A stretch of DNA of 32,000 nt from Acaryochloris marina MBIC11017 (GTDB lineage: Bacteria; Cyanobacteriota; Cyanobacteriia; Thermosynechococcales; Thermosynechococcaceae): positions 62,962-94,961 of the forward strand of contig NC_009931.1 in assembly GCF_000018105.1 (NCBI RefSeq), written 5' to 3'. The position numbers were made by a program, and so were the translations under genes. This document shows, piece by piece, positions 1 through 12,869 of the stretch. The notes under the pieces were generated by a model. The model had not been told where the DNA came from, did not search any database, and saw nothing but the letters and a program-made list of their open reading frames with translations. Numbering within the stretch: the stretch's first letter is position 1; every line of letters starts with the position of its first letter.

Positions 1-1449
1 GGGTTCTACGTCCATCTCGGCCAAGCGGACAATGGCACTAGCCGCATCATTCGTGTGCAAAGTGGTTAACACCAAGTGCCCCGTGAGCGCGGCTTCAATA
101 GCAGTTTTGGCGGTTTCCTTGTCCCGTGTCTCACCCACGAGTAGGACATCAGGGTCTTGTCGGAGAAAGGCTCGCAGGATCGAGGCAAAGTCCATGCCTT
201 TTTCTCGCAGCACCTGCACCTGGGTAATCCCTGGCAGTGTATATTCAATCGGATCTTCAACGGTACTGATATTAACTTCGGGGGTATTGCGTTCCGTCAA
301 AGCCGAATACAAAGTGGTCGTTTTACCAGAACCCGTGGGACCCGTGACTAAAATTAGACCGAACGGACGATCGACCATGGACCTCACCAACTCCAGGCTC
401 ATTGGGTCATCAATCAAATTGTCGAGACCCAGCTGCATGGAAGAGTTGTCTAAGATCCGCAACACCACTTTCTCGCCATAGCGACTCGGCAAGGTGCTGA
501 CACGAAAGTCAACTTTACGTCCTTGAAACAGTCGAAGAATACGTCCATCCTGGGGCAGACGCCGTTCCGCAATATCTAAATTGGCAATGATTTTAAATCG
601 AGAGACCAGGGCAGGCGTAATTCGCCGTGGAAGAGGTTGGAAGGCGTTATGGAGGAGGCCGTCTTTCCGAAAGCGAACTCGCAGGTTTTCTTCTTGCGGT
701 TCAATATGAATATCCGAAATCTGATTCTGTAAGGCCTTCGCTAAAATCTTATTAACCAAAGAAATGATGGGTGCTGCATTTTCGTCTAGCAGTGCTTCAT
801 CTAAGTTGATGTCGGCATCATTGGTGGCCAGATCTTCAATGCCGCCTAAGCGATCGAGATCATCTTCCAGCCCATACTCAACGGGCAAATTCTCTTGGAT
901 CGTGGCTTGGCGTTTGGCTTGAGCGTCCAAAAACTTGGCGATCAACATTTGGTAAGTATCCAAATCCAGGACGACCCGTTGGAAGGTCATGCCATTGGAG
1001 CGCAATAAGTAGCCAATATCATCAATGGCGCTGAGGTGATCGGGATTGACCATACCGATCCGAACAACTGGCGGATCCTCTTCTTCATTGAGTGAAAGTG
1101 GTAACAACTGATAGCGACGGCAGTAGTCGAGGGGAATAACGGTGCGAATCAGCCGATCAATTTCATCGAAGTCAACTTGAGTAAGCTCAGGATCCAGACA
1201 CTCTAGGCCATAGAGGATTTTTAACTCAAAGAGTTGCTGGCGCTTGATCTGCCGTAACAAGCGGGGAGGAAGTGGCTTCCCCGTCATTTTCTGGAGAATC
1301 ACCAGCAGAGATCGACCTTTGCGCCGACTCTCATAAATCGCTTCGCGCAAGCGTGCTTGGTCTACATAACCACTTTTTATTAATTTTTCATTTGAAGGAG
1401 AAAAGTTATTTCTAACGAGTAAATCTCGCTTGGATGAGTCATTCCCCAT
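1..1449 (-). CDS. pilB: Type IV pilus assembly / type II secretion ATPase (GspE/PilB family); C-terminus runs off the window start
   Basis: The minus-strand frame is open from the ATG at 1449-1447 to position 1. It is absent from the ORF track because there is no stop inside the window. My translation reads MGNDSSKRDLLVRNNFSPSNEKLIKSGYVDQARL... It continues through GSPII_E N-domain-like segments, Walker A GPTGSGKTTT, LLVGETRD and TGHLVLTTLHTND, all typical of GspE/PilB hexameric ATPases. Confidence 0.9.
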   Translation of the reverse strand, partial: MGNDSSKRDLLVRNNFSPSNEKLIKSGYVDQARLREAIYESRRKGRSLLVILQKMTGKPLPPRLLRQIKRQQLFELKILYGLECLDPELTQVDFDEIDRLIRTVIPLDYCRRYQLLPLSLNEEEDPPVVRIGMVNPDHLSAIDDIGYLLRSNGMTFQRVVLDLDTYQMLIAKFLDAQAKRQATIQENLPVEYGLEDDLDRLGGIEDLATNDADINLDEALLDENAAPIISLVNKILAKALQNQISDIHIEPQEENLRVRFRKDGLLHNAFQPLPRRITPALVSRFKIIANLDIAERRLPQDGRILRLFQGRKVDFRVSTLPSRYGEKVVLRILDNSSMQLGLDNLIDDPMSLELVRSMVDRPFGLILVTGPTGSGKTTTLYSALTERNTPEVNISTVEDPIEYTLPGITQVQVLREKGMDFASILRAFLRQDPDVLLVGETRDKETAKTAIEAALTGHLVLTTLHTNDAASAIVRLAEMDVEP

Positions 1450-1619
1450 GAGATAAAAACGCTATAAATTTAACTGAATTTGAAGCTAAAAAACCGTGTA
1501 TTCACGAGTACATTAGGTTGTCGAAAACCCAAGGCCAATGCAGACTTACTCAGTCGCCACCTACCAATACCACAAATATCCTTTCGGCAGCAATTGTTGA
1601 CATGTTGCTCCCATGACAA

Positions 1620-2105
1620 TCAATACCTTCCCACACTGTAAGCTCTCAATTCTGTTGACATACAATCTTGGCATATACAGTTTATTTCTAGTTGTGGGCT
1701 CGCAAGATGAAAGCCTGCATCGCTAGTGTTTTTCTTTAGCAAATCCATAATTGGTGCGCTTATCGCGACTTCCTTAACTTTTTGGCATTGACCACAGATT
1801 AAAAATTGCGTCTGAGCATGTTCTTGTTCGCACTTTATGTGTTCGCAAGCGACATACTTATTGATCAGATCAAGGCGATGCACCAAGTTCTCTGCCATTA
1901 AAAACTCTAAAATTCGATACATAGACATGGCAGGCATGGTGTCACCCAATTCAGTTTTATAAGCCTCCACTAACTCATAAGCAGAGAGTGCTTTGCTCGA
2001 TTTAAGTAACAGTGATAGCGCTAGTTTTCTTTTTTTAGTTAAACGCGAGCCGTTTTCTTTACAGCGTCGCTCTGCGTGATCGATCACCCGTTGAATAGCA
2101 TCCAT
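1620..2105 (-). CDS. Fur-family metalloregulator, proteobacterial Zur-like architecture
   Basis: 161-aa ORF. It has a long N-terminal helix (AERRCKENGSRLTKKRKLALSLL) followed by a winged helix (SAYELVEAY...MYRILEFLMAENLVHRL). Cys/His ligands are present (CEHIKCEQEH, CGQC, CICQDC). The overall layout resembles E. coli-type Zur more than the cyanobacterial Zur at 8585. It lies downstream of a COG0523 gene on the same strand. Confidence 0.75.
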   Translation of the reverse strand: MDAIQRVIDHAERRCKENGSRLTKKRKLALSLLLKSSKALSAYELVEAYKTELGDTMPAMSMYRILEFLMAENLVHRLDLINKYVACEHIKCEQEHAQTQFLICGQCQKVKEVAISAPIMDLLKKNTSDAGFHLASPQLEINCICQDCMSTELRAYSVGRY

Positions 2106-2353
2106 TCTTTATCTCAATGAAATTGCATTTTTAGTAGAGGCCAACGTTACTGTGCTCTGCTTGATTTCTGTTGCCCGCATCACATCACTTTTTTACTCCG
2201 GGGAACTTCAATAAATAGGGCCATTACACAAGTCAATCTTTAAGGCCTTTACAGCTAAAACACTAGCTCGCAGATATTTCGCTGTGGGCACTTTCATCAT
2301 GTTCTTCTGAGTTCATTACATCTGTTAAAAGTGAGTAATTCATATTAGTGAAC

Positions 2354-3562
2354 TCATGCGCTGTGACCCCACTCAGGAAATGGGTCGTTTAATGATTTCC
2401 AATAAGTGTGGCCCCGCACAATTTCTTCCTCGCTTAATAGACATTCATCAAGCGCTTGTGTGATGCGTTCTTTATCCAAACCCTGGCCGATAAAAACTAG
2501 CTCCTGACGCATATCACCAAAAGGCTCTACCCATTGCTTTTTAATTGCGGCGAGATATTCTTCGTCTTGCGGCCAGTTTTCCTTGGGTACGGCTTTCCAG
2601 AACATCCCTGCGACACCGTGGCGAGCTATGCCTCCAGCCTGACTCCAGTGACCCGCAAACTGAGGGCGCGAAGCTAGCCAGAAGTACCCTTTAGAACGGA
2701 TTAACTTACCGTATTTGTCTCTACTGGACAGAAACTGGTAAAACTTTTCTGGATGGAAAGGTCGTCGCGCAACGTAGCTAAAACTGCCTATGCCGTATTC
2801 TTCGGTTTCAGGGACATGCTCACCTCGCATCTCCTTGAGCCAACCAGCCGCTTGTTGTGCGCGCTCGAAATCGAATAATCCGGTGCTAAGCACATGATCA
2901 ATATTAACTTGGCCTTGAGCAATCGGTACTATTTTCGCGTGCGTATTCAGCGTTTTAAGAATGGCTGTTAAGCGTTCGATATCAGAAGGGAGCACCAAGT
3001 CGGTTTTGCTTATGAGAATGACGTCGGCGAACTCCACTTGATCGACCAGCAAATCGGCGACACTGCGTTCATCTTCTTCACCCAAAGATTCACCCGTATC
3101 CTTTAAGGATCGCGCCTTTTCATAGTCCTCCAGAAAATTGACTGCATCGACCACGGTCACCATTGTGTCTAGATCGGCAACATCAGAAAGCGAAGCGCCA
3201 TCTTCATCCGTAAAGGTAAAAGTTTCAGCTACAGGTAAAGGTTCAGAAATACCAGTGGATTCAATTACTAAATAATCAAAGCGACCCTCCCGTGCAAGCT
3301 TGTTAACTTCCTCAAGCAAATCTTCCCGTAAGGTGCAACAAATGCAGCCATTACTCATTTCAACAAGCTTTTCCTCGCTGCGGTTGAGAGAAACTTCACT
3401 TTGTACAATCGCCGAATCAATGTTGATTTCACTCATATCATTGACAATTACGGCGACCTTCTTGCCTTCCCGGTTGTTCAGAATGTGGCTCAGCACGGTG
3501 GTTTTACCGGCCCCAAGGAAACCTGAGAGTACGGTGACGGGGAGTTTGTTTGTATGTCTCAT
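2354..3562 (-). CDS. COG0523/CobW-family G3E GTPase, ZigA/YeiR-like putative zinc metallochaperone
   Basis: 402-aa ORF. It has the P-loop [11 protein letters not shown], the signature metal motif [21 protein letters not shown] and SKTDL. The long CobW C-terminal domain ([20 protein letters not shown]) is typical of ~400-aa ZigA-type proteins. Confidence 0.9.
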
Positions 3563-3626
3563 TGATTTCTATTACATTTCAATATGGTTCGTCTTTGGTT
3601 TGGCCAACTGATTGAATATTGAAAAC

Positions 3627-3652
3627 AAATGATATGATACATCGTATCATTT
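3627..3652. promoter_or_regulatory. Candidate Fur-family (Zur-type) operator upstream of the COG0523 gene
   Basis: The sequence is AAATGATATGATACATCGTATCATTT. It contains the 7-3-7 palindrome ATGATAC-atc-GTATCAT (3634-3650), nested in outer arms AAATGATA/TATCATTT. It lies about 70-90 nt upstream of the start at 3562. Confidence 0.45.
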
Positions 3653-4083
3653 TATTCTTTTGAATTTCGTGGAGCAGCCTAAAAGTCACTGTCTGTAACC
3701 ATTCGTTGGCCCAGTAATCAGTAGATGGAGCATGATAGCCCTCTCGTTTAGGCTTAAAGATCGCGAATCTGCATCCAAGTACCACGTGATCGTTGAAAGC
3801 TATATCTAGTAAGCATCCTTGGAAAATTTCCAAAAACTTTCCTGAGAACGGCAATTTATTGGAAAGTTTTTATTTTTTGATCCAAGCCGTGTTGTTCTAT
3901 CACAGGCATTTCTCAGAATAAATCTTGTCTAGAAGTTATTAGGCAACATTTATTACTTTGATTTTTGATTAATATTTAGATGTGGGTACTTACAGTTATG
4001 AATACTAGGTTTCACATAGATGTTTTTTGACCCCAGATGTTCCTTCTTAGAGATGGCTAGCACTTTTCTGTAGGTACTTATAG

Positions 4084-4509
4084 ATGCAACAACAAGCAGA
4101 TAAAATTATCCAAACTTTAAAAGCGAAAGGCCTGCGAGTCACACCCCAGCGTTTTGCAGTCTATGCAGACTTACTAGCTCGCTCAGACCACCCAACTGCG
4201 GAGCAAATTACGAATCATCTGAATCAAGATGGACCTACCTCTTCTCAGGCAACGGTCTACTCCTCACTCCAGGCCTTACGCGAAGTGGGGCTTGTTCGAG
4301 AGGTTCTCTTAGAAGAAGGTGTTTGTCGTTATGATGCCAATATCGAACCTCACCATCACTTCCGATGTCAGTCTTGTGGAGCGATTGAGGATATTGCCTG
4401 GGATCAGCTTCAGGATTTAGATTTTAAGGCGCTTCGCCCTGGGTTACAGGTCACTCATTATGAGATCACGGTACATGGTGGATATTGCAATCGCTGCCAC
4501 CCCGAATAA
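4084..4509 (+). CDS. Fur-family regulator, PerR-like
   Basis: 141-aa ORF. LRVTPQRFAVYADLL...HPTAEQI forms the winged helix. It also has VYSSLQALREVGLV, the HHHFRCQSCG motif and a C-terminal CNRC pair. The arrangement resembles PerR/FurC-type paralogs. Confidence 0.75.
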   Translation: MQQQADKIIQTLKAKGLRVTPQRFAVYADLLARSDHPTAEQITNHLNQDGPTSSQATVYSSLQALREVGLVREVLLEEGVCRYDANIEPHHHFRCQSCGAIEDIAWDQLQDLDFKALRPGLQVTHYEITVHGGYCNRCHPE

Positions 4510-4662
4510 AAGCAAAAAGCGTTTAGATACCCCGTTAATCTTATATCCTGCAATCGCAGAGTGATGACCCATTACCAATGATTTGCCCAGGACTTTTCGC
4601 AATTTTTCCCAGACTTAATTCACCATTGACAAGCCCTTGATTCAGATGGGTAGTAAGGACCG

Positions 4663-5091
4663 CTAACATTGAGGACAGATGGCATGAATTGATAATTGAC
4701 AATCTAACAGATGAAATCCTAATTTTTTGGCTGTCTTGGAACCGATTTTCAGAACAGCATCACTTTTAAACTCAATGGTTTCATTGCATTTAACACAAAT
4801 TAGATGGTGATGATGGTGGGGATAGGGCTGATTCAGTTCATAGTGTTTATGACCTTCAGCTAATTCTAACTCTCGCAAAATCCCCATGCGAGCCATTAAT
4901 TTCACCGTTCGATAAATGGTCGATAAACTAATGGGCTTACCCTGTTCTTGCAGGAGAGTATCTAAATCTTCGGCACTCAAATGTTTGCCTTTTTCGAGGT
5001 CTATAAACACATTAAGAATGGTTTCCCGCTGAGGGGTGAGGCGCCAACCTCGATCGTTCAGTTCTGCTTTGAGCGAGTTAGCGTCGTACAT
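4663..5091 (-). CDS. fur: Ferric uptake regulator Fur (cyanobacterial FurA type)
   Basis: 142-aa ORF. The N-terminus SLKAELNDRGWRLTPQRETIL, the segment LSTIYRTVKLMARMGILRELELAEGHKHYEL, the His run PHHHHHLICVKCN and the C-terminal CPQC closely match what I recall of the cyanobacterial Fur sequences (Synechocystis sll0567 / Anabaena FurA). Confidence 0.9.
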   Translation of the reverse strand: MYDANSLKAELNDRGWRLTPQRETILNVFIDLEKGKHLSAEDLDTLLQEQGKPISLSTIYRTVKLMARMGILRELELAEGHKHYELNQPYPHHHHHLICVKCNETIEFKSDAVLKIGSKTAKKLGFHLLDCQLSIHAICPQC

Positions 5092-5428
5092 AGTCTTTTC
5101 TCAAGAACATAAGCTTATTGAAAGTCTAACTATACATGGATGCTTTAGCAACAAGAAGATTTTATTGAGAAAAGAATAGCGGATTTTTTGCTCTCTGTAA
5201 TTGCTGATCGCCTGCATTAACAGGGTGTTTGAGCGATCAACCTTATCCTTGCTCAGCGATATGAAGCGCTAGTCCAGCCCCATTTAGAGTCCCAATCTGA
5301 CTGATGGTGACAGATTTTACTATGCTAAATCTCGGCTCTATGGACTTTCCCTAGAATTTAGTCCACCAGCTTATGCTTATCCGTTCTGTACCAGATGGGA
5401 TGGGGGCGTTGGCTGATTCTAAAAAATT

Positions 5429-5449
5429 ATGATAATGATAATCATTATA
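5429..5449. promoter_or_regulatory. Fur-box-like operator, copy 1 (upstream of the flavoprotein/FeoB-like operon)
   Basis: ATGATAATGATAATCATTATA. Positions 5431-5449 match the classical 19-bp Fur consensus GATAATGATAATCATTATC at 18 of 19 positions. The site ends about 30 nt upstream of the ATG at 5479. Confidence 0.7.
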
Positions 5450-5478
5450 TTAAACTCTTGCTGGCAGCAAGTCTATCC

Positions 5479-6600
5479 ATGAAAGAGACAAATTCTTCCT
5501 ATGACGTGGTGATAGTCGGTGCAGGGCCAGCCGGGGTCGGTTGTGCGGTTGCACTTCAAGAGCTGGGACTAGAAAACTTTATCTTGTTGGAACGACAGCA
5601 GGTAGGAGCCTCCTTTAGCCGCTGGCCAACGGAGATGAACTTGATAACCCCCTCGTTTCCGAGTCATGGTTTTGGCCTACTTGATCTCAATGCCATTACC
5701 CTGAAAACATCGCCAGCGATTGCCTTTCGCCGAGAACATCTTAATGGCCAGCAGTATGCGCTCTATTTGCAAACGGTGGTCAACCACTTCCAGTTACCTG
5801 TGAAGACAGGAACGGACGTTTTGGCAATTAAGCCCCTTTCTCAGTGTCGCGGCTTTATCCTCAAGACTTCTGGCGGAGACGTCAAAACCCAGTTTGTGAT
5901 CTGGGCTGCTGGGGAATTCCAATACCCAAGGTTAAATCCATTTGTGGGAGCAGACCATTGCATTCACAATTCTCAGATTCGCTCTTGGAAAAATTTGCCA
6001 GGGGATGAATTTACGATCATCGGTGGCTATGAAAGTGGTATGGATGCCGCGACCCACTTAGTCGAATTAGGGAAGAAGGTCAGGGTTTTAGATCGGACTG
6101 GGGCTTGGGACAACCCGGATACTGATCCGAGTATTGCGTTGTCACCCTATACAGTGCAGCGTGTAAAGCTAGCCACTCAAACGGGTCGCCTCAAACTGAT
6201 CGGCAATGTCTCCATTGAGGAAGTCAAAAAAGTGTCAGAGGGCTATGCCGTTTTCAGCAAATACGAGAAATGGCTGACAGTTCATCCCCCGATTCTGTGT
6301 ACTGGTTTTGAGACCAGCTTGCAGCAGATTGCGTCGCTGTTCGATTGGACGGAGGGTTATGCCATGTTGAATGATCAAGATGAGTCTACTCTGACGCCAG
6401 GTCTCTTTGTGGCTGGCCCCTCAGTCCGTCATCACAACGTTATTTTTTGCTTTATCTATAAATTTCGCCAGCGGTTTGCGGTAGTGGCTGATGCGATCGC
6501 ACGCCGTTTAGACCTTGACCCTGCACCATTAGAAATCTACCGCCGGCAAGGCATGTTTCTAGATGACCTGTCTTGTTGCGACAACGACTGTATCTGCTAA
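5479..6600 (+). CDS. FAD/NAD(P)-dependent oxidoreductase (CzcO/YpdA-like flavoprotein) with a C-terminal Cys-rich tail
   Basis: The tracked ORF is 5395-6600. I moved the start to the ATG at 5479 because the upstream 84 nt contain the operator. It has the dinucleotide-binding motif YDVVIVGAGPAGVGCAVAL and a second Rossmann-like segment FTIIGGYESGMDAATHL. The protein ends in LSCCDNDCIC. Confidence 0.8.
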   Translation: MKETNSSYDVVIVGAGPAGVGCAVALQELGLENFILLERQQVGASFSRWPTEMNLITPSFPSHGFGLLDLNAITLKTSPAIAFRREHLNGQQYALYLQTVVNHFQLPVKTGTDVLAIKPLSQCRGFILKTSGGDVKTQFVIWAAGEFQYPRLNPFVGADHCIHNSQIRSWKNLPGDEFTIIGGYESGMDAATHLVELGKKVRVLDRTGAWDNPDTDPSIALSPYTVQRVKLATQTGRLKLIGNVSIEEVKKVSEGYAVFSKYEKWLTVHPPILCTGFETSLQQIASLFDWTEGYAMLNDQDESTLTPGLFVAGPSVRHHNVIFCFIYKFRQRFAVVADAIARRLDLDPAPLEIYRRQGMFLDDLSCCDNDCIC

Positions 6601-6644
6601 CCCCTGTATCTGCTGAAAAATTTCTAAGTTGCTCAACATCCGCT

Positions 6645-8324
6645 ATGCCCCTGCTTACTTCACCAGCTCAGCGTTCTATCGTCGTAATCGGTAAAGAGAA
6701 TACGGGCAAATCTCAACTGGTTGCCTCGCTCACGGGATGTTTGCCCGACAGCATTAACTTCCGAGGCTCTACGATTGCCTGTGACACCTATATCGGAGGC
6801 GGACTGACTGTTGTGGATACCCCCGGTATTTTGTACCGTTCTGATCGGGTCACCACTCAAGCTGCACTGGCCCAATTAGAAACCCATGACACCGTGTTGT
6901 TGGTGATCAAAGCAACCCATATTGATGAAGATCTAGCGGATTTATGGCCCTTGGTGGTGGGGAAGCGGGGCATTGTTGTGATCACGTTTTGGGACAAAGC
7001 GTCTCAAGCTGGGTTTACCCAGCAGATTGTTCAATGCTGGGACCAAACCTCGAATCTGGCGTTTATCCCCGTTGATGCCAGACATCTAACCCCAGCCCAA
7101 CACCACGACATTCGGGCAGCCTTGCAAGAGCCGACTATATTTTCCCCAGAATGGCAACCCATTCCCACGGGATGGCGAATTGAACCGCGACCAACGGTGT
7201 TAGAACATCCACAGTTTGGCTGGCTGGTAGCGATCAGTTTTCTATTGCTGCCGACCCTACTTGCGGTGTGGTTTGCCAATAGTTTCGCAGCAGTTGCCGA
7301 TCCTCTGATGCAAGCGCTGCTCCAACCTCTAGTAGACGTTCTGGCTAATATACCTCTGTCTTTGCCCAGGGAAATGCTGATTGGGCGTTATGGCTTGCTA
7401 ACCATGGGACCGTTGCTATGGGTCTGGGCTGTACCGACCGTTATTCTCTATGCCTTATGTCTGGGAACTTACAAGGCCAGTGGCTTGGTAGAGCGAATCA
7501 CGGTTGCCCTCCATCCCCTGTTGCACCCCTTGGGTTTATCTGGACGGGATTTGGTGCGGGTCGTGATGGGATTTGGCTGTAATGTGCCAGCGGTGATCAG
7601 TACCCGTGCCTGTTCGAGTTGCGCTCGCCAAACATGTATGTCGGCGATTGCCTTTGGTTCTGCCTGTTCGTATCAATTCGGTGCCACCCTGGCAGTGTTT
7701 AGTGCAGCCCATCGGCCTAGTTTGGTGATTCCCTACCTGGGTTATCTCACTGTGACAACGCTGATTTACACTCGCTTGCTTGCCCCCAAGTCGGCTCGTT
7801 CGTCTCACAACCGGCTGATGATTGAACACCGCACATTTTTGGAAAGGCCCCGCTGGGCCACCATCTGGCGAGAAACCCAGGGCATGCTTCATCAGTTTTT
7901 TACCAGTGCTATTCCCATTTTTGTGGCCATTACCTTGATCGCGTCGCTTTTAGACGAGCTGAGTCTTCTGACTGCTGCTGCATCGATCATCCATCCCCTA
8001 ATGCAGATCTTTCGCCTCCCTCCAGAAGCAGCGTTGCCCATGATCCTGGCCTCTATTCGCAAAGATGGTCTGCTGCTCATTGCTGAACCTGAAACCCTCT
8101 CTGCTCTCACACCACTGCAGATTCTCACAGGGGTGTACCTGGCAGGTGTTTTATTGCCTTGTTTGGTCACGGCACTGACGATTGCCCGAGAACAGTCTCT
8201 CCGATTTGCCCTGGCGTTAATGGGTCGCCAGGCAATCATGGCAACTTGCTTCTCCTTGATCTTGGCCTGGGGTGGATACTGGTGCTCGAGTGCATTAGCC
8301 AACGTGGTGTTCCCCTTGCCTTAA
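6645..8324 (+). CDS. feoB: FeoB-family GTPase-permease (ferrous iron transporter-like); no feoA present
   Basis: The tracked ORF is 6573-8324. The ATG at 6645 avoids overlap with the upstream gene. The N-terminal G domain has VIGKENTGKS (G1) and VVDTPG (G3). The polytopic membrane part carries the FeoB gate signature GFGCNVPAVISTRAC. Confidence 0.8.
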   Translation: MPLLTSPAQRSIVVIGKENTGKSQLVASLTGCLPDSINFRGSTIACDTYIGGGLTVVDTPGILYRSDRVTTQAALAQLETHDTVLLVIKATHIDEDLADLWPLVVGKRGIVVITFWDKASQAGFTQQIVQCWDQTSNLAFIPVDARHLTPAQHHDIRAALQEPTIFSPEWQPIPTGWRIEPRPTVLEHPQFGWLVAISFLLLPTLLAVWFANSFAAVADPLMQALLQPLVDVLANIPLSLPREMLIGRYGLLTMGPLLWVWAVPTVILYALCLGTYKASGLVERITVALHPLLHPLGLSGRDLVRVVMGFGCNVPAVISTRACSSCARQTCMSAIAFGSACSYQFGATLAVFSAAHRPSLVIPYLGYLTVTTLIYTRLLAPKSARSSHNRLMIEHRTFLERPRWATIWRETQGMLHQFFTSAIPIFVAITLIASLLDELSLLTAAASIIHPLMQIFRLPPEAALPMILASIRKDGLLLIAEPETLSALTPLQILTGVYLAGVLLPCLVTALTIAREQSLRFALALMGRQAIMATCFSLILAWGGYWCSSALANVVFPLP

Positions 8325-8451
8325 TAGCGGTTCACCCTTGAGCGTAACCCATTGTTTCTAAACTCTAGGAAGAGGTTGGAAGATGCGATCACGCTTGGGC
8401 CACCATTGATCCTCTGCAACCGCCTGCGGTACTTAACCCGACGAGACTTGC

Positions 8452-8543
8452 CAGGGGTTAGGGTTGAATCTTGGTATCAGCAGCCTCTCAAGCAAAGCCG
8501 CTATTATAAAATGATAATGATAATCATTCTGATAACTCTTGAG
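8452..8543 (+). repeat. About 90-bp promoter/operator module, copy A
   Basis: The sequence is caGGGGTTAGGGTTGAATCTTG...CTCTCAAGC...TATAAAATGATAATGATAATCATTCTGATAACTCTTGAG. It is near-identical to 10377-10467: about 80 of 90 positions by eye, with one 1-nt indel. Confidence 0.9.
8511..8528. promoter_or_regulatory. Fur-box-like operator, copy 2 (upstream of zur)
   Basis: The exact 18-mer ATGATAATGATAATCATT. It contains the 6-1-6 palindrome AATGAT-A-ATCATT and overlaps a -10-like TAAAAT (8507-8512). It lies about 57-63 nt upstream of the 8585/8591 start. Confidence 0.7.
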
Positions 8544-8584
8544 ATCTGCAATCACACTGTTCTCATTCAAGATGCAATAAGAAG

Positions 8585-8980
8585 GTGAGTATGCCAGAGA
8601 AACTAACTCCCAATCAGCGACGCGTGTTGGAAGTCCTCTTTTCCACTCCTCAAGAATTCTCTGCCCAAGATCTGCATAAAGAATTCAAAAAGCAGCAACA
8701 AAGAGTGGGATTGGCAACGGTTTACCGTGCCCTTAAGGTCCTTCAGAAGTGTGGAAAAGTGCACACGCGCTTGTTACAGAATGGAGAAGCGGTTTATAGT
8801 ATTCCCTCTGCTCATCAACATCATCTAACCTGTGTGAGCTGTGGCAGTTCCATGCCTTTAATGAACGGTCCAGTCCACGAGTTAGAAAAGGAACTTGCCC
8901 AAACACAGAAATTTCAAGTTTTTTACCACACCCTAGAAGTCTTTGGTCTGTGTCAGAACTGCATTGAAGCAAAGGTTTAA
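8585..8980 (+). CDS. zur: Fur-family zinc uptake regulator (cyanobacterial Zur/FurB type)
   Basis: 131-aa ORF with a GTG at 8585 and an alternative ATG at 8591. LTPNQRRVLEVL...FSAQDLHKEF...GLATVYRALKVLQKCGKV, then HQHHLTCVSCG and a C-terminal CQNC. It resembles Synechocystis/Anabaena Zur as I recall them. Confidence 0.8.
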   Translation: MSMPEKLTPNQRRVLEVLFSTPQEFSAQDLHKEFKKQQQRVGLATVYRALKVLQKCGKVHTRLLQNGEAVYSIPSAHQHHLTCVSCGSSMPLMNGPVHELEKELAQTQKFQVFYHTLEVFGLCQNCIEAKV

Positions 8981-9131
8981 GCCAGAAGAAAGGTGATTAG
9001 GTGAGCCTAAATCTCCTTGACTTCATAACACCGGGTATCTAACTGATTGCTTATCAAAAACGCCAGCTCTTTGAAGGTTATAATGATGCCACCTTTGCGA
9101 CAACCCACGTTCTTCGGCTCTCTCTGACTTC

Positions 9132-9638
9132 ATGACACATGTCAGCATGTACTATCCAATTTTTGGGCCTGAGACGCTCTGCCCCCATTGCCGACAAGTG
9201 ATGCCAGCGTTGACCCTAACAGATACCTATCTTTGCAAACGTCATGGTGCATTTGAAGCAGATCCCAATACTGAAGAGTTAGTGCACTTACAATCTGGAC
9301 GCCATTGGCGGTTATGGGACGGGCAATGGTATCGCCAACATATCCATCCAGATGGCATTCGTTTCGAAATTCATGAAGCGTTAGATCGACTCTATACCGA
9401 AGGATATCGGGCGACAAAAGTCATCATCGCCCCGCGCTATCGCACGTTGATTAACTCTTTTCTAGAGCATTCTCCCTGGCCTGATCAAACCTCATCTGGG
9501 CATCCCTATTTATACGGTCTACCCGTAGAATTTGGTCCTGATCCCGAGCAAGATCCCCGTTGGCAAGTGATTAATTTTGATCTCGATAAAGAACCAGGAA
9601 TTCCCATTAATTCTCCCCATTCTCAGCTATTGTATTAG
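9132..9638 (+). CDS. Conserved hypothetical protein with an N-terminal CxxC...CxxH zinc-ribbon-like motif
   Basis: 168-aa ORF. It has LCPHCRQVMPALTLTDTYLCKRHGAF. The codon usage looks coding, and there are no competing ORFs except an antisense shadow. I suspect a cyanobacteria-restricted conserved family but cannot verify this. Confidence 0.65.
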   Translation: MTHVSMYYPIFGPETLCPHCRQVMPALTLTDTYLCKRHGAFEADPNTEELVHLQSGRHWRLWDGQWYRQHIHPDGIRFEIHEALDRLYTEGYRATKVIIAPRYRTLINSFLEHSPWPDQTSSGHPYLYGLPVEFGPDPEQDPRWQVINFDLDKEPGIPINSPHSQLLY

Positions 9639-9786
9639 GGCTTCTGAAGCGAAGCTTTTGTGTCTCATTAGTCAGATGGTGCGCTTTTTCCGTAAACAAG
9701 CGACCTCCAAAGCGTACTGGAGGGGCTGGGGCGATCTGCATCAGAGGCTGAGTTGGAAGTCCTTGCAACTCCATGAAGCGATCTAA

Positions 9787-9951
9787 AATGCGATGAAACA
9801 GGCACCCAGAGCCAGTTTCTTGGTGGAGAATCTAAACTCTAGTCTGCGCAACTATTTCACGCTTCTCACACATCTTGGGACACCCAATTTAGGACATCTT
9901 CAGTTCTTTCTCAACCACCGACAATTCATGAGTAGGGCATTGTCAACTTAA
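9787..9951 (+). pseudogene. C-terminal fragment of a DDE transposase
   Basis: The translation ...SFLVENLNSSLRNYFTLLTHLGTPNLGHLQFFLNHRQFMSRALST* matches the conserved C-terminal block (ENLNS.LRNYF...LQFFLNHR) of a transposase family common in cyanobacteria. There is no upstream catalytic part. Confidence 0.55.
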
Positions 9952-10045
9952 CGACCGATCACACAAAATGGGCACTATTTTTAACAATAGGCTCAGGATG
10001 GAGGGTTAAGCAGCAGTGCTTAGACCCGTCACATCACGCTAGCTT

Positions 10046-10348
10046 TCAAAACGCTGACTCAGCGTACTCAAAATTCAGGAGCAGATTGTTGATGTTGCAA
10101 GGGATGAAAATGTCCTCGTATGGGTTCAAATGTAGAGAAAAACGTTGAGCGTGGCCGGGAGATTTGAAGCGTCCCATCCGCGTTTCTCTCATCCTTGTCG
10201 GTCGATGTGGGTTCTCCGCTCGATTATTCAGTTCTTTATGCTGTCTGTGATCTACCCCCTTCAGGCTCTTTTTCGTGGCCACAGCATCATGCAAACGATT
10301 GTGGACGGTTCCCGCACTGATGCACGAATAAAATAGGTGGCGTAACAA
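10046..10348 (-). pseudogene. IS6-family (IS6100-like) transposase C-terminal fragment
   Basis: The translation contains ELNNRAENPHRPTRMRETRMGRFKSPGHAQRF. This is the LNNRAENSH..R.RER.M.RFKS block of IS6-family transposases. The DDE N-terminal portion is missing. Confidence 0.65.
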
Positions 10349-10376
10349 CTCAACGACACCTCAATAAGATGAATGG

Positions 10377-10467
10377 CAGGGGTTAGGGTTGAATCTTGTC
10401 TCAACGGTCTCTCAAGCAGAGTCGCTATCATAAAATGATAATGATAATCATTCCGATAACTCTTGAG
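10377..10467 (+). repeat. About 90-bp promoter/operator module, copy B
   Basis: Near-identical to 8452-8543 and in the same orientation. It ends 11 nt before the ATG of the HNH gene, with an AAGGA Shine-Dalgarno sequence in between. Confidence 0.9.
10435..10452. promoter_or_regulatory. Fur-box-like operator, copy 3 (upstream of the HNH endonuclease gene)
   Basis: The exact 18-mer ATGATAATGATAATCATT, 27 nt upstream of the ATG at 10479. Confidence 0.7.
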
Positions 10468-10478
10468 GATAAGGATCT

Positions 10479-10976
10479 ATGGGCAATGTTCTCGTTCTGA
10501 ATGCCTCCTATGAGCCGCTCAATATCACCAGTTGGCGTCGAGCGGTTGTTTTGGTCCTTAAAGAAAAAGCTGAGCAAGTGGAACACAACGGTAAGTTTGT
10601 GTATCGAGACTTTCCCCTCCCCACGGTTATTCGATTGCTCCAATATGTCCGTGTTCCGTATAAAGAAATTACCTTAAACCGTCGGAACTTACTGCATCGA
10701 GATAATCATACCTGCCAATACTGTGGATATACTGGCAGTGATTTGACCCTTGATCACGTAATGCCGAGATCCCGTGGCGGCGGTGATACTTGGGAAAATA
10801 TGGTGACGGCCTGTGTGCGCTGCAATGTCAAAAAAGGCAACCGCACTCCTAAAGAGGCACGGATGATACTGAATAAAACCCCGCGTCGCCCCCATAGTAG
10901 CTTGTACTTTGAGGTTACTAAACATTTTCGGAATGGGGTTCACCAAGAATGGCGCAAATATGTCATTGGCATGTAA
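10479..10976 (+). CDS. HNH endonuclease (McrA/COG1403-like)
   Basis: 165-aa ORF. The HNH/Zn-finger core is CQYCGYTGSDLTLDHVMPRSRGGGDTWENMVTACVRCNVKKGNRTP. The N-terminus VLVLNASYEPLNITSWRRAV is typical of this small HNH family. Confidence 0.9.
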   Translation: MGNVLVLNASYEPLNITSWRRAVVLVLKEKAEQVEHNGKFVYRDFPLPTVIRLLQYVRVPYKEITLNRRNLLHRDNHTCQYCGYTGSDLTLDHVMPRSRGGGDTWENMVTACVRCNVKKGNRTPKEARMILNKTPRRPHSSLYFEVTKHFRNGVHQEWRKYVIGM

Positions 10977-11192
10977 TGTGCATCTTCGTTTTTGGCTGAA
11001 AAATATATGTGAGGTGAGTATTCCTCCCTATCCATTTGGGGGTATCTTCACATCAAGGTGATAATCTTTTCGAATAGGATCGGAGAAAATAAGAGATATA
11101 TCTGCTCTGTTAGCTAACCTGCTGAATATGGGTTAGCAATCTCTTGTACTGAATGTGTACTAAATTGCCTTATATCGCAGTTTCAGATAAAG

Positions 11193-12869
11193 TCATTCGC
11201 CTCCATACTGGGCCTTGAGTTCAGCGACGAGATCGTCATCTATCTTTTGAAAGAGGGGAGCCGGGACCATAAAGGAGCGACCTGCGGCTAAAAGTGTTAA
11301 ATCCGATGCTTCAGTCATGGTGTGACGGCGTTCTACATCAGTCAGCTGGAGGGCATCAAACAGAGCTTGGGTTGTGTGTGGAATGAATGGAGCGCTTGAG
11401 ATCGCATACAGCCGAATTAGGTTAACGCAGGTACGAATCACCATCGCAGTCTCGTCCTGATCCGTCTTAAACAATACCCACGGAGCCCGCACATCAATGT
11501 ACTGATTTCCTGTTCTCCAAAGGGCATTTAAAGTCTCCGTTGCTCGACGGAACTCTAGGTTATGCAGATATTTGCGTAGTTTTTCCACCAGCTCGTTACA
11601 GGTCACCTGCAGCTCGGCTTCAGCATCACCAGGGGTGCCCCCCTCCGGCAAAGTCATCCCAAATCGAGATGCTGTAAATTTGAGGATGCGATTTACAAAA
11701 TTACCCAGATTATCAGCCAGCTCCTTATTCACCTGCTTCTGGAACTGTTCCCAAGTAAAAGCAGAGTCAGCCGATTCAGGAGCATTGGCGATCAGCATAT
11801 AGCGCCAATTGTCTGCTGAGGCGATTTCAAGGGCTTGGTCTAAAAAGACCCCTCTCTGGGAACTGGTCGAGAACTTGCCGCCGTAGTAGTTAAGCCAATT
11901 AAACCCCTTAATATAGTCCACCATCTTCCACGGCTCACGGCTGCCTAAAATCGTGGCGGGCCACATGATCGTATGAAAGGGCAAATTATCCTTTGCCATG
12001 AACTGGGTGTAGTGAACATCATCGCTCTCCTTCCACCAGCATTCCCAGTCATTGTTAGTGATATCGCCCCAAGCCTTTGTGGCTGAAATGTAGCCGATAG
12101 GAGCATCAAACCATACGTAGAAGACCTTCCTCTCAAATCCTTCAGTGGGCACTGGCACACCCCAGACTAAATCACGGGTGATGCATCGGCTTTTTAATCC
12201 TTCATTAAGCCACTTGAGAGCAATCGATTTAGTCAGGGTCGACCATTGAGTTTGTTTATCGACCCAATTGCGGACTTCATCACTGAGCTTATCTAGCCTT
12301 AAGAACAAATGCCTTGAAGTACGCAATTCTAGGTGCGTGCTGCCGGAAATTGTAGAACGAGGTTTAATCAGCTCGGTTGGAGTGAGAACTTTAGTGCAGT
12401 TCTCGCACTGATCGCCTCGGGCCTGTTCATAGCCGCAGTGCGGACAGGTACCAGTGACATAGCGATCAGGCAGAAACCGTTGATCGTCTAATGCATAGAA
12501 CTGGCTGATTTCACGTTCTTCGATAAAGTTTTGCTTTGCTAGTTGTTGATAAAAGTACTGGGTGAGTTCATGATTTTCAGGAGCCGACGTCCGACCAAAA
12601 TAATCGAAAGAGAGACCAAAGCGCTTGTAGATTTCCTTCTGCTTGTGGTACTGCTTTGCACAAAATTCTGCTACTTCTAGCCCTGCATCAATGGCCGCAA
12701 TTTCAGCAGGAGTCCCATGCTCATCAGTGGCGCAGATGTAGAGAACCTCTTCCCCCTCTTGTCGTAAAAAACGTGCGTATATATCAGCGGGAAGCATTGA
12801 GCCCACAAGATTTCCTAAATGCTTAATACCATTGATATAAGGAAGAGCACTGGTAATGAGATATCGCAT
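11193..12869 (-). CDS. metG: Methionine--tRNA ligase (MetRS1-type, single zinc knuckle, no C-terminal tRNA-binding appendix)
   Basis: 558-aa ORF. The class I HIGH region is ALPYINGIKHLGNLVG. The zinc knuckle is CPHCGYEQARGDQCENC. The KMSKS equivalent is GKFSTSS. The anticodon-binding helical domain follows. Confidence 0.95.
   Translation of the reverse strand: MRYLITSALPYINGIKHLGNLVGSMLPADIYARFLRQEGEEVLYICATDEHGTPAEIAAIDAGLEVAEFCAKQYHKQKEIYKRFGLSFDYFGRTSAPENHELTQYFYQQLAKQNFIEEREISQFYALDDQRFLPDRYVTGTCPHCGYEQARGDQCENCTKVLTPTELIKPRSTISGSTHLELRTSRHLFLRLDKLSDEVRNWVDKQTQWSTLTKSIALKWLNEGLKSRCITRDLVWGVPVPTEGFERKVFYVWFDAPIGYISATKAWGDITNNDWECWWKESDDVHYTQFMAKDNLPFHTIMWPATILGSREPWKMVDYIKGFNWLNYYGGKFSTSSQRGVFLDQALEIASADNWRYMLIANAPESADSAFTWEQFQKQVNKELADNLGNFVNRILKFTASRFGMTLPEGGTPGDAEAELQVTCNELVEKLRKYLHNLEFRRATETLNALWRTGNQYIDVRAPWVLFKTDQDETAMVIRTCVNLIRLYAISSAPFIPHTTQALFDALQLTDVERRHTMTEASDLTLLAAGRSFMVPAPLFQKIDDDLVAELKAQYGGE

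Follow-up and report, generated by a model that had tools for sequence, protein, structure and literature searches.

A Zur-boxed flavoprotein and FeoB-like permease pair in Acaryochloris marina, a candidate zinc-starvation module

Bacterial zinc import is known to proceed through ZnuABC-type ABC systems, ZIP/ZupT proteins, metallophores, and a few outer-membrane or exoprotein systems. Two records describe loci close to the gene pair analysed here. In Staphylococcus aureus, the Zur-boxed operon HG001_02621-02624 contains a COG0523 gene, an 'iron transporter', and an 'oxidoreductase', and both mutation of zur and calprotectin raise its expression (PMC13586535). Haas 2009 (PMC2770081, additional file 3) lists 'TrxB' and 'FeoB' as neighbours of COG0523 subgroup 14 in staphylococci and Cyanothece ATCC 51142/Crocosphaera. 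The FeoB-like protein of Cyanothece/Crocosphaera subtropica ATCC 51142 is 66% identical to the Acaryochloris one. Both records are passing mentions that give no function, family definition, or mechanism, and our search of the literature on FeoB, COG0523, or CzcO in connection with Zur or zinc yields no paper devoted to the module. The arrangement was initially called unusual; this holds for the literature, which assigns it no published function, but not for the neighbourhood, which was already recorded in the Haas 2009 supplement and in the S. aureus study of 2026. In addition, the Corynebacterium glutamicum Zur target cg0795 is an 'oxidoreductase' gene divergent from a COG0523 gene and derepressed 45,500-fold; it is a candidate member of the flavoprotein family, as a lead only.

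The window, the whole 32,000-nucleotide stretch of Acaryochloris marina MBIC11017 plasmid DNA that was analysed, contains the pair together with a Fur-family repressor gene and a COG0523 gene (Table 1). The two-gene layout described in the initial annotation is correct: the flavoprotein ends in a Cys-rich tail, and the FeoB-like gene begins after a gap of 44 nt (6601-6644). The flavoprotein boundaries are identical to the RefSeq call in pREC2 of A. marina MBIC10699, a 95.4%-identical plasmid. A longer ORF starting at 5395 is not taken as the gene, because it crosses the operator and because RefSeq and the orthologues begin at the MKE codon. Sixteen aligned orthologues back the MPLL start of the FeoB-like protein. 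Purifying selection acts on all copies (dN/dS 0.13-0.19, computed for the FeoB-like genes on a codon alignment). An Rfam scan of 3500-11200 finds no known RNA element.

Table 1 Features of the locus (positions in the window)
Feature	Position	Strand	Remarks
ZigA-type COG0523 zinc metallochaperone GTPase	2354-3562	-	Same island; NCBIfam NF038288 707.7 bits, cut-off 600
FurA-like gene	4663-5091		Divergent, upstream of the pair
Promoter-like site	5409-5436	+	-35 TTGGCT (5409), 16-nt spacer, -10 GATAAT (5431-5436)
Zur operator, two overlapping 7-1-7 boxes	5429-5450		TGATAATGATAATCA (5430-5444) and TGATAATCATTATAT (5436-5450)
Flavoprotein gene	5479-6600	+	ATG 5479, stop 6598-6600, 373 aa; Pyr_redox_3 type, two dinucleotide-binding folds
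Flavoprotein C-terminal tail LSCCDNDCIC	6568-6597	+	Last ten residues of the translation
FeoB-like GTPase-permease gene	6645-8324	+	559 aa; G domain ~1-170, membrane domain ~185-559
Gate motif GFGCNVPA, then R-A-C-S-S-C-A-R cluster (C323, C326)	7569-7622	+
Second operator copy	8511-8530		Before zur
zur, Fur-family repressor	8585-8980	+	Likely binder of the operator, as predicted from sequence

By its sequence, the operator upstream of the flavoprotein gene is a cyanobacterial Zur box. It carries the 7-1-7 box TGATAATNATTATCA of cyanobacterial Zur regulons, which here overlaps the promoter and is common to znu, COG0523, and paralogue genes, and it is nearly identical to the double site that gel shifts validated at Anabaena all3515/zepA (PMC10957091, S3 table). 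Within the window, ATGATAATGATAATCATT is found three times, at 5429, 8511, and 10435. A 14-mer derived from it has 19 matches at ≤3 mismatches, compared with 4.6 expected, and none of 100 shuffles gets as high as 19. The -10 element of the promoter-like site falls within the operator box; the site itself is a consensus match, one of two such sites in the region against 4.0 expected, and is weak alone. The best solved relatives of the zur product are the Zur of Synechococcus WH8102 (7NE9, E 5.5e-24) and the Zur/FurB of Mycobacterium tuberculosis (2O03).

Genome-wide, the operator box occurs at 24 sites, compared with 4 for a control pattern. It precedes the divergent thrS2 and folE+COG0523 genes, hemB2-znuA, cysS2, and zur, and it also adjoins further COG0523 genes. 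Leaving zur aside, these genes match the Zur regulon that PMC6103462 reviews for Anabaena. Perfect or near-perfect boxes also precede the flavoprotein gene in seven other cyanobacterial loci, the chromosomal copy included; in Prochloron and in genome G250, no recognisable Zur box is present within 350 nt. The Staphylococcus coagulans flavoprotein gene has the firmicute-type Zur box TCGTAATTATTTCGA upstream, and that of a Tatumella-like locus has the gamma-proteobacterial type ATGTTAcgTTATAACAT. Membership of the pair in the Zur regulon is established in silico.

The initial annotation offered iron uptake as one reading, with the flavoprotein as the reductase of Fe(III) and the FeoB-like protein as the importer of the Fe(II) so formed. 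Consistent with it, the operator has 18 of the 19 bases of the classical E. coli Fur-box consensus, and the divergent upstream gene is FurA-like. However, the same sequence is the Zur site in cyanobacteria, and we reject Fur (iron) as a reading of the operator on the strength of the genome-wide census, in which the box marks zinc genes and not iron genes.

Co-occurrence of the two genes is strict in the genomes sampled. Of 400 cyanobacterial genomes, the same five contain each gene, and the two are adjacent in all five and divergent in one; the module is accessory. At each of the 13 related loci with enough upstream DNA, a flavoprotein gene adjoins the FeoB-like gene. The loci span nine phylum-level lineages, archaea included, and come from Cyanobacteria, Planctomycetes, Verrucomicrobia, Spirochaetes, Chloroflexi, Nitrosopumilus, and Halorubrum. 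Conservation of the neighbourhood, the first check proposed for the pair, is strongly positive. Operon anatomy, family hallmarks, and strict co-occurrence are established in silico. A COG0523/ZigA gene adjoins the pair at six loci and on Klebsiella plasmids, about 500 of which match the module in PLSDB. The COG0523-bearing islands also carry FolE2, DksA2, gamma-carbonic anhydrase, paralogues of HisI, CysRS, and ThrRS, and Fur-family genes. This company of COG0523 and zinc-paralogue genes in many phyla argues against iron uptake. The alternative first reading, in which a FeoB-type transporter under Zur has been turned to zinc, is supported in its regulation and genomic context by the Zur box, the genome box census, and these zinc-island neighbours. 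Metals other than zinc are possible, because a NikR-like regulator stands beside the pair in Nitrosopumilus and a P-type ATPase in Pirellulaceae.

The permease has the build of the Fe(II) transporter FeoB (TIGR00437/PRK09554; 786 aa in the FeoB of this genome, L109): a small GTPase at the N-terminus is joined to a polytopic membrane domain that carries two Gate motifs. The motifs G1 GKENTGKS, G3 DTPG, and gate GFGCNVPA are present as first read. Pfam FeoB_N is matched at 33 bits (cut-off 27), MMR_HSR1 is matched as well, and two separate stretches match Gate (PF07670). Canonical FeoB has aligned counterparts of GFGCNVPA, C341, and C506, and the FxSCS-like and PC(L/V)xT cysteines are common to both proteins. 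In hhalign, the protein aligns with the canonical FeoB of its own genome at a probability of 97.8%, with ~25% identity over ~425 columns. This homology of the membrane domain speaks for iron uptake, but the protein is far below the FeoB equivalog cut-offs (TIGR00437, 106.6 against 315.65 bits; NF007105, 42.3 against 683).

Unlike FeoB, the permease is ~230 residues shorter and has no helical (GDI/S) domain, a gap of ~100 residues lying opposite canonical positions 170-270 in hhalign. Its G4 is atypical (TFWDK), and its G domain is no nearer to FeoB than to Era, Der, or TrmE. It also has an extra CxxC (C323, C326) past the gate motif, which is missing from the canonical FeoB of this genome. Of 14 family members, 13 have the CxxC, among them archaeal ones and the staphylococcal partner without a GTPase, and the sole exception (L026) is a bad reading frame. 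Identity drops from 42-71% within the FeoB-like family to at most 29% with canonical FeoB. The AlphaFold model is of moderate confidence (pLDDT 70; CxxC loop <50). A fold search with this model finds only G domains and weak matches to nucleoside transporters (CNT), and PDB searches with the single sequence and a profile find only G-domain relatives (Der, Era, TrmE, NFeoB) and no full-length FeoB. In further contrast to FeoB, the gene comes without FeoA or FeoC, its operator is a Zur box and not an iron box, and a flavoprotein is its constant partner. The absence of FeoA and FeoC from the locus, already noted initially, is confirmed; FeoA domains occur in this genome solely beside two canonical feoB genes (contigs C1 and C2). 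Because these two canonical FeoAB systems exist elsewhere, the ferric-reduction reading is unsupported.

Pfam Pyr_redox_3 covers the full length of the flavoprotein (E 2.9e-100). From its sequence, the protein appears to be of the same family as its best solved relative, PDB 3D1C (E 4e-76, TM 0.90-0.94), a 'flavin-containing putative monooxygenase' (NP_373108.1) of S. aureus Mu50 from structural genomics, 2008. The two have in common the (L/F)C(Y/F)IYKFR motif and the terminal tail, which is DDYSCCEVSCTC in 3D1C; they differ in that identity is 35% and the staphylococcal partner permease, that of S. coagulans, has a Gate domain and the CxxC but no GTPase. The flavoprotein shows each mark of the Cys-tailed family that 3D1C typifies, namely a Pyr_redox_3 core, an invariant Cys, a terminal CCxxxCxC, and an adjoining permease gene. 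The tail consensus is [DE]DLSCCxxxCxC at the extreme end of the protein. In 35 diverse sequences, C371 and C373 are invariant and C367 is conserved in ≥90%; the internal C324, in FCFIYKFRQRF, is invariant. In the AlphaFold model, pLDDT falls below 50 over the last residues, which suggests that the tail is a flexible arm.

Right behind 3D1C, Foldseek ranks the NADPH-dependent bacillithiol disulfide reductase YpdA/Bdr (7A7B and 7A76, TM 0.75-0.85), the nearest characterised fold. The flavoprotein resembles YpdA/Bdr in its NADPH/FAD fold with two dinucleotide-binding domains and in its alignment, which shows no internal CxxC beside the flavin. It differs in that identity is 19-20%, and YpdA has neither a C-terminal Cys tail nor a permease partner. 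The fold is thus nearest a disulfide reductase, not the known ferric reductases. Given this fold, the Zur box in place of an iron box, the zinc-gene company, and the two FeoAB systems, ferric reduction feeding FeoB is not upheld, and we regard iron uptake as very improbable.

The YpdA/Bdr fold is consistent with transport of a thiol, a disulfide, or a zinc-ligand complex. Here the permease would import a small sulfur-containing carrier of zinc, or the disulfide of that carrier, and the flavoprotein would reduce it inside the cytoplasm and free the zinc, much as YpdA/Bdr acts on bacillithiol disulfide. At other loci, the flavoprotein is partnered with Gate-only and ACR3/SBF-like permeases, and such a variable partner is to be expected if the flavoprotein works on the cargo and does not dock to a single permease fold. 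Nucleoside transporters, too, contain Gate domains, in line with the weak CNT matches. Against a carrier, the YpdA model TIGR04018 scores 78.8 bits, below its 339.9 cut-off, and the loci examined have no linked genes for carrier biosynthesis. In addition, lineages that share the Cys tail use different low-molecular-weight thiols. Conservation of the tail despite this difference points to a substrate of the flavoprotein that is protein-borne, and the invariant tail and the permease CxxC likewise suggest protein-borne ligands. We consider the carrier reading unlikely.

The ACR3-like partners, some of which bear an APCTDW motif, also bear on metalloid handling, in which an ArsO-like flavoprotein with an ArsD-like CC...C motif would act with the permease on As(III)/Sb(III). 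Vicinal-Cys sites do bind As(III). The NCBIfam ArsO match is weak (E 1.4e-11) and reaches 44 bits against a cut-off of 425, ars genes are not linked, and Zur boxes and COG0523 neighbours are found even at the ACR3-like loci. Metalloid handling is extremely improbable.

On plasmid C3 of this genome, the flavoprotein gene is intact and the FeoB-like gene is deleted. This copy, together with the varied permease partners, means that the flavoprotein may have a role independent of this permease or of a GTPase. It also favours a pair that does not import zinc and instead redistributes or spares it, for example by mobilising zinc held in thiolate stores or compartments, or by shielding zinc-free Cys sites from oxidation while zinc is scarce, with the permease working outward or between compartments. 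Many Zur-regulon genes have sparing or replacement functions, and CzcO of Bacillus subtilis is a flavoprotein that helps a zinc exporter, CzcD. However, zinc export during starvation is physiologically implausible, the genomes sampled show strict co-occurrence of the flavoprotein with the permease, and the membrane partner comes from an uptake family. We judge such a role decidedly unlikely.

To the reading that we prefer, a Zur-repressed zinc-starvation operon for FeoB-type import of Zn(II) or a thiophilic metal with a relay through the Cys arm of the flavoprotein, we give about an even chance. Zn(II) as substrate, the direction of import, and the thiol relay are what we infer. In favour of this reading are the Zur operator and the census of its box, the coupling of the two genes, the company of zinc genes, the presence of canonical FeoAB systems elsewhere, the S. 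aureus operon, purifying selection, and several thiol features: the family-specific CxxC, the invariant terminal CxC and C324, the predicted flexibility of the tail, the kinship of the fold to bacillithiol disulfide reductase, and the conservation of the tail across lineages with different low-molecular-weight thiols. When zinc is replete, Zur would sit on the double box that overlaps the -10 element; when zinc is short, both genes would be co-transcribed. The shortened FeoB-type permease, with its extra cysteines in the pore region, would then move Zn(II), or another thiol-loving divalent metal able to replace zinc, into the cytoplasm. The flavoprotein is presumably an NAD(P)H-dependent enzyme of the thioredoxin-reductase/YpdA structural class, and its flexible four-cysteine arm would pick up the metal on the cytoplasmic side. 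The role of the flavin would be to hold the arm, and perhaps the permease CxxC as well, in the reduced state, or to cycle the arm between an oxidised and a reduced form. Distribution of the metal would then fall to COG0523 chaperones, for example the neighbouring ZigA. Zn(II) is redox-inactive, and the need for a flavin is unexplained unless the flavin serves thiols. A broader proposal, unlikely in our estimate, is a new class of redox-coupled zinc importers in which a thiol-lined permease (FeoB-type here, Gate-only or ACR3-type at other loci) hands Zn(II) to the arm, and a flavin-driven redox cycle of the arm powers high-affinity capture and later release to COG0523 chaperones.

If import of zinc by the pair is correct, it would be an additional route of zinc import, made up of a conserved FeoB-type permease under Zur control and its obligate flavoprotein partner, and the question would arise of what purpose a flavin serves for a redox-inert metal. 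The module extends beyond cyanobacteria to zinc islands of archaea, planctomycetes, and verrucomicrobia and to staphylococci. Because it is found in staphylococci and on the Klebsiella plasmids, it may bear on how pathogens withstand zinc withholding by the host. As annotations of these genes, 'ferrous iron transporter B', 'thioredoxin reductase', and 'flavoprotein involved in K+ transport' probably mislead. From 3D1C and the S. coagulans locus, we infer that the genes of the S. aureus operon belong to the same family.

Two known systems resemble parts of the proposed one. In B. subtilis CzcO/CzcD (COG2072, 'CzcD-associated flavoprotein'), a flavoprotein of the Pyr_redox_3 type has a genetic link to a zinc transporter; unlike the Acaryochloris pair, which stands in a starvation context, CzcD is an exporter induced by metal excess. 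Mercuric reductase MerA is a flavoprotein whose flexible C-terminal Cys pair receives a thiophilic metal, and it reduces Hg(II), whereas zinc, the likely metal of the Acaryochloris pair, is not reducible.

The flavoprotein ends in LSCCDNDCIC, and the gene of the FeoB-like permease starts 44 nt downstream. The permease carries the motifs G1 GKENTGKS and G3 DTPG, an atypical G4 (TFWDK), and the gate motif GFGCNVPA, and it matches the Pfam models FeoB_N (33 bits), MMR_HSR1, and Gate (two stretches). Neither FeoA nor FeoC is encoded at the operon; the four FeoA domains of the genome all adjoin its two canonical feoB genes (~786-805 aa, on contigs C1 and C2). The gene boundaries, the motifs, and the absence of FeoA and FeoC therefore confirm what the initial annotation had observed, a Cys-tailed flavoprotein followed by a FeoB-like GTPase-permease with no FeoA or FeoC. 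Plasmid pREC2 of Acaryochloris marina MBIC10699 matches region 5300-8400 at 95.4% identity; on it, RefSeq names the products 'NAD(P)/FAD-dependent oxidoreductase' and 'nucleoside recognition domain-containing protein' and the boundaries agree with those derived here.

Features in and beside the zinc island of the window (contig C7, 62962-94961, of the source genome G000; 8.36 Mb, 10 contigs)
Feature	Position	Strand	Length	Remarks
Fur-family gene	1620-2105	-		closest to enterobacterial Zur
ZigA-type COG0523 GTPase gene	2354-3562	-		
Fur-family gene	4084-4509	+		PerR-like
Fur-family gene	4663-5091	-		Fur-like
Operator ATGATAATGATAATCATT	5429			first copy
-10 element GATAAT	5431-5436			within operator box
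Flavoprotein gene	5479-6600		373 aa	Pfam Pyr_redox_3 over full length, E 2.9e-100
FeoB-like gene	6645-8324		559 aa	start set by alignment of 16 orthologues
Promoter-operator module	8445-8540			5' of zur
Operator ATGATAATGATAATCATT	8511			second copy
Fur-family gene (zur)	8585-8980	+		cyanobacterial Zur
Promoter-operator module	10377-10470			5' of HNH endonuclease gene
Operator ATGATAATGATAATCATT	10435			third copy
HNH endonuclease gene	10479-10976			
Methionyl-tRNA synthetase gene	11193-12869	-		

Positions 5430-5450 comprise two overlapping 7-1-7 boxes, TGATAATGATAATCA and TGATAATCATTATAT. In the Anabaena all3515/zepA promoter, which is bound by Zur in gel shifts, TGATTATGATAATCA overlaps TGATAATCATTATCG, and the perfect Anabaena Zur site is TGATAATCATTATCA (PMC10957091, S3 table). 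The -10 element within the box belongs to a promoter-like -35/-10 pair, a weak match on its own. The initial annotation had offered ferric reduction feeding FeoB as one reading of the pair. The operator is also similar to the Fur box of E. coli in its classical form, and the divergent gene upstream of it is FurA-like; we therefore count the box genome-wide. The pattern TGATAATNATTATCA at ≤1 mismatch gives 24 sites in the whole genome, versus 4 for the control pattern. Beside these boxes lie genes for a ThrRS paralogue (divergent from GTP cyclohydrolase I and a COG0523 zinc metallochaperone GTPase), three more COG0523 proteins, ALAD (hemB2) followed by ZnuA, a CysRS paralogue, an OprB porin, DUF1636, and a MetH-like protein, a set that corresponds to the Zur regulon of Anabaena (reviewed in PMC6103462). 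The zur gene of the window has its own copy of the box upstream, and its product resembles Synechococcus WH8102 Zur (7NE9) and M. tuberculosis Zur most closely. Given the box census, the neighboring genes, and this similarity, the predicted Zur control of the pair is well supported in silico, and the operator is very probably a Zur box. The boxes mark zinc genes throughout the genome and FeoA occurs only beside canonical feoB; the ferric-reduction reading is therefore not supported, and iron uptake by the pair is disfavored.

Four Fur-family genes and the ZigA-type gene are packed in 7.4 kb (1620-8980). The promoter-operator module, ~90 bp long (cagggguuaggguugaaucuug...ATGATAATGATAATCATTc.GATAACTCTTGAG), is duplicated. 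The plasmid methionyl-tRNA synthetase gene adjoins the zinc island and is possibly a zinc-sparing paralogue of the thrS2 and cysS2 kind; no Zur box is found near it at ≤3 mismatches. On the chromosome (locus L113, G000:C1:3038200-3043200), a perfect Zur box separates an alpha/beta hydrolase gene from that of another, unrelated flavoprotein (408 aa, Lys_Orn_oxgnase/NAD_binding_9 type), which is followed by SufE.

The initial annotation had proposed neighborhood conservation as a check, and its outcome is clearly positive. The FeoB-like protein and the flavoprotein are each present in the identical 5 genomes of a 400-genome cyanobacterial sample, and the two genes are adjacent in all five, divergently so in one. 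A wider scan of one genome per prokaryote species finds FeoB-like relatives of 42-71% identity in Cyanobacteria, Planctomycetes, Verrucomicrobia/Opitutales, Alkalispirochaeta, Dehalococcoidia, Nitrosopumilus, and Halorubrum, below which identity falls steeply to ≤29% for canonical FeoB. The flavoprotein gene is adjacent in 13/13 of those loci with upstream DNA.

The source genome holds further copies. A chromosomal pair (L110, G000:C1:3057000-3073000), 91% and 94% identical, has the order flavoprotein, 407-nt spacer, FeoB-like gene (611 aa, with a C-terminus 52 residues longer than that of the window protein), an overlapping 486-aa gene with one TM segment and no Pfam match, and a Zur-like gene. 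Six Zur boxes in C1:3040696-3095111 make up a chromosomal zinc island. Plasmid C3 (G000:C3:86000-101000; L111, L010) carries a duplicate of window 1-6768 at 96.9% identity, in which 6769-8485, practically the entire FeoB-like gene, is deleted. What remains is an intact, Zur-boxed orphan flavoprotein gene with zur and DUF2396 directly downstream, in effect a permease knockout made by nature. With dN/dS of 0.13-0.19, every copy is under purifying selection. Redistribution of zinc, or protection of thiols, is a rival explanation to be weighed beside this orphan.

The genomic context is zinc in each phylum examined, with exceptions at Prochloron, the sampled genome G250, and Nitrosopumilus. The Opitutales locus L027 reads flavoprotein, FeoB-like, 125-aa protein, ZigA, MerC-like, CysRS paralogue, YidD/cytidine deaminase, Fur-family, and COG0523; its MerC-like membrane protein thus lies inside the zinc island. 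In Alkalispirochaeta, a Fur-family gene is divergent from flavoprotein, COG0523, and FeoB-like genes, and in Halorubrum COG0523 is divergent from the pair. A Tatumella-like locus (L106) and, likewise, Klebsiella pneumoniae plasmids hold gamma-carbonic anhydrase, FolE2, DksA2, COG0523, a Fur-family repressor, the pair, ZigA, HisI, and a second repressor; by tblastn, the FeoB-like gene is on 527 PLSDB plasmids, of which Klebsiella accounts for 498. At seven loci (L011, L014, L015, L019, L094, L095, and L096), a perfect or near-perfect box of the cyanobacterial type lies 5' of the flavoprotein; in Staphylococcus coagulans the box is of the firmicute type, and in the Tatumella-like locus it is of a gamma-proteobacterial type. 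Just 5' of the flavoprotein gene, the palindrome TGAAAGnGACTTTCA is common to two Opitutales loci (L027:5700-5810, L028:4040-4140) and is a candidate verrucomicrobial Zur box. No recognizable Zur box lies within 350 nt in Prochloron and G250. In Nitrosopumilus (L021:4283-4690), the pair is divergent and a gene for a NikR-C-domain regulator adjoins the flavoprotein gene, a possible sign that this archaeon uses another regulator or another metal.

Compared with the genome's own FeoB, the FeoB-like protein lacks ~100 residues of helical domain, is 25% identical across the remaining sequence, and scores far under the FeoB equivalog cut-offs. A CxxC directly follows the gate (GFGCNVPA....R-x-C-x-x-C-[ST]-R; C323 and C326 in the window protein) in 13 of 14 members compared, the exception being L026, which has a bad reading frame. 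Canonical FeoB lacks this CxxC. The family has C312, C341, and C506 in common with FeoB. The partner in staphylococci has 449 aa and is Gate-only; it retains the CxxC and lacks the GTPase.

The flavoprotein is the constant element of the module, and the partner permease varies. Elsewhere the flavoprotein is paired with ACR3/SBF-like permeases; one such pairing sits in an archaeal-type island with three COG0523 genes, class I aldolase, and M24 peptidase. Handling of metalloids by the module is a further, unlikely rival reading. A locus in another lineage (L104:2567-7113) reads ZIP transporter, Fur-family gene, 336-aa and 401-aa proteins without Pfam match, and Cys-tailed flavoprotein; the 401-aa protein is rich in His and Cys at its C-terminus, where CxxC pairs occur. 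Among 1.84 billion cluster representatives, only ~211 clusters are related to the flavoprotein at E ≤ 1e-30, and [DE]DLSCCxxxCxC forms the end of the majority of the full-length ones. A set of 35 diverse sequences shows no variation in the two dinucleotide motifs, in C324 (within FCFIYKFRQRF), or in C371 and C373. The AlphaFold model (pLDDT 92.5) is confident except for the last residues, which suggests that the tail is a flexible arm. PDB 3D1C (S. aureus Mu50, structural genomics, no assigned function) is a family member and shares the tail. The next closest fold is bacillithiol disulfide reductase YpdA/Bdr (TM 0.75-0.85), followed by thioredoxin-reductase-like enzymes and, lower still, N-hydroxylating monooxygenases.

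A rival explanation is that a zinc-thiol carrier is imported and then reduced. Lineages with the conserved tail differ in the low-molecular-weight thiols that they use, and retention of the tail across them argues for a protein-borne substrate. In our preferred reading, the permease would take up Zn(II), or a thiophilic stand-in, by a cysteine-lined path, and the flexible Cys4 arm of the flavoprotein would receive the metal. NAD(P)H and FAD would hold the arm, and perhaps also the permease CxxC, reduced, or would cycle it, and COG0523 chaperones would then hand out the metal. This redox-arm mechanism is tentative and rather unlikely as it stands; a role of the module in zinc acquisition is at even odds or slightly better. 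The in silico evidence shows the pair as a strictly coupled, two-gene module under predicted Zur repression and part of the zinc-starvation response. The other proposal in the initial annotation, a FeoB-type transporter recruited for zinc under Zur, is supported by the predicted regulation and by the genomic context, with zinc as the putative substrate.

Parts of this neighborhood have been recorded before. In the supplement of Haas et al. 2009 (PMC2770081), COG0523 'subgroup 14' co-localizes with ZnuA, 'TrxB', and 'FeoB' in S. aureus, S. epidermidis, Crocosphaera watsonii, and Cyanothece ATCC 51142, and Zur sites are given on the Klebsiella pLVPK island. For S. aureus, a 2026 paper (PMC13586535) places Zur boxes 5' of HG001_02621-24, labeled COG0523, 'putative iron transporter', and 'putative oxidoreductase', whose proteins become more abundant when zur is mutated and when calprotectin is present. 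In C. glutamicum, cg0795 encodes an 'oxidoreductase' under Zur repression, adjoins a COG0523 gene, and may be related. In the searchable literature, we find no definition of the family or of its cysteine hallmarks and no account of its function. Beside these known systems, a FeoB-family permease combined with a thioredoxin-reductase-like flavoprotein is possibly a genuinely new transport mechanism.
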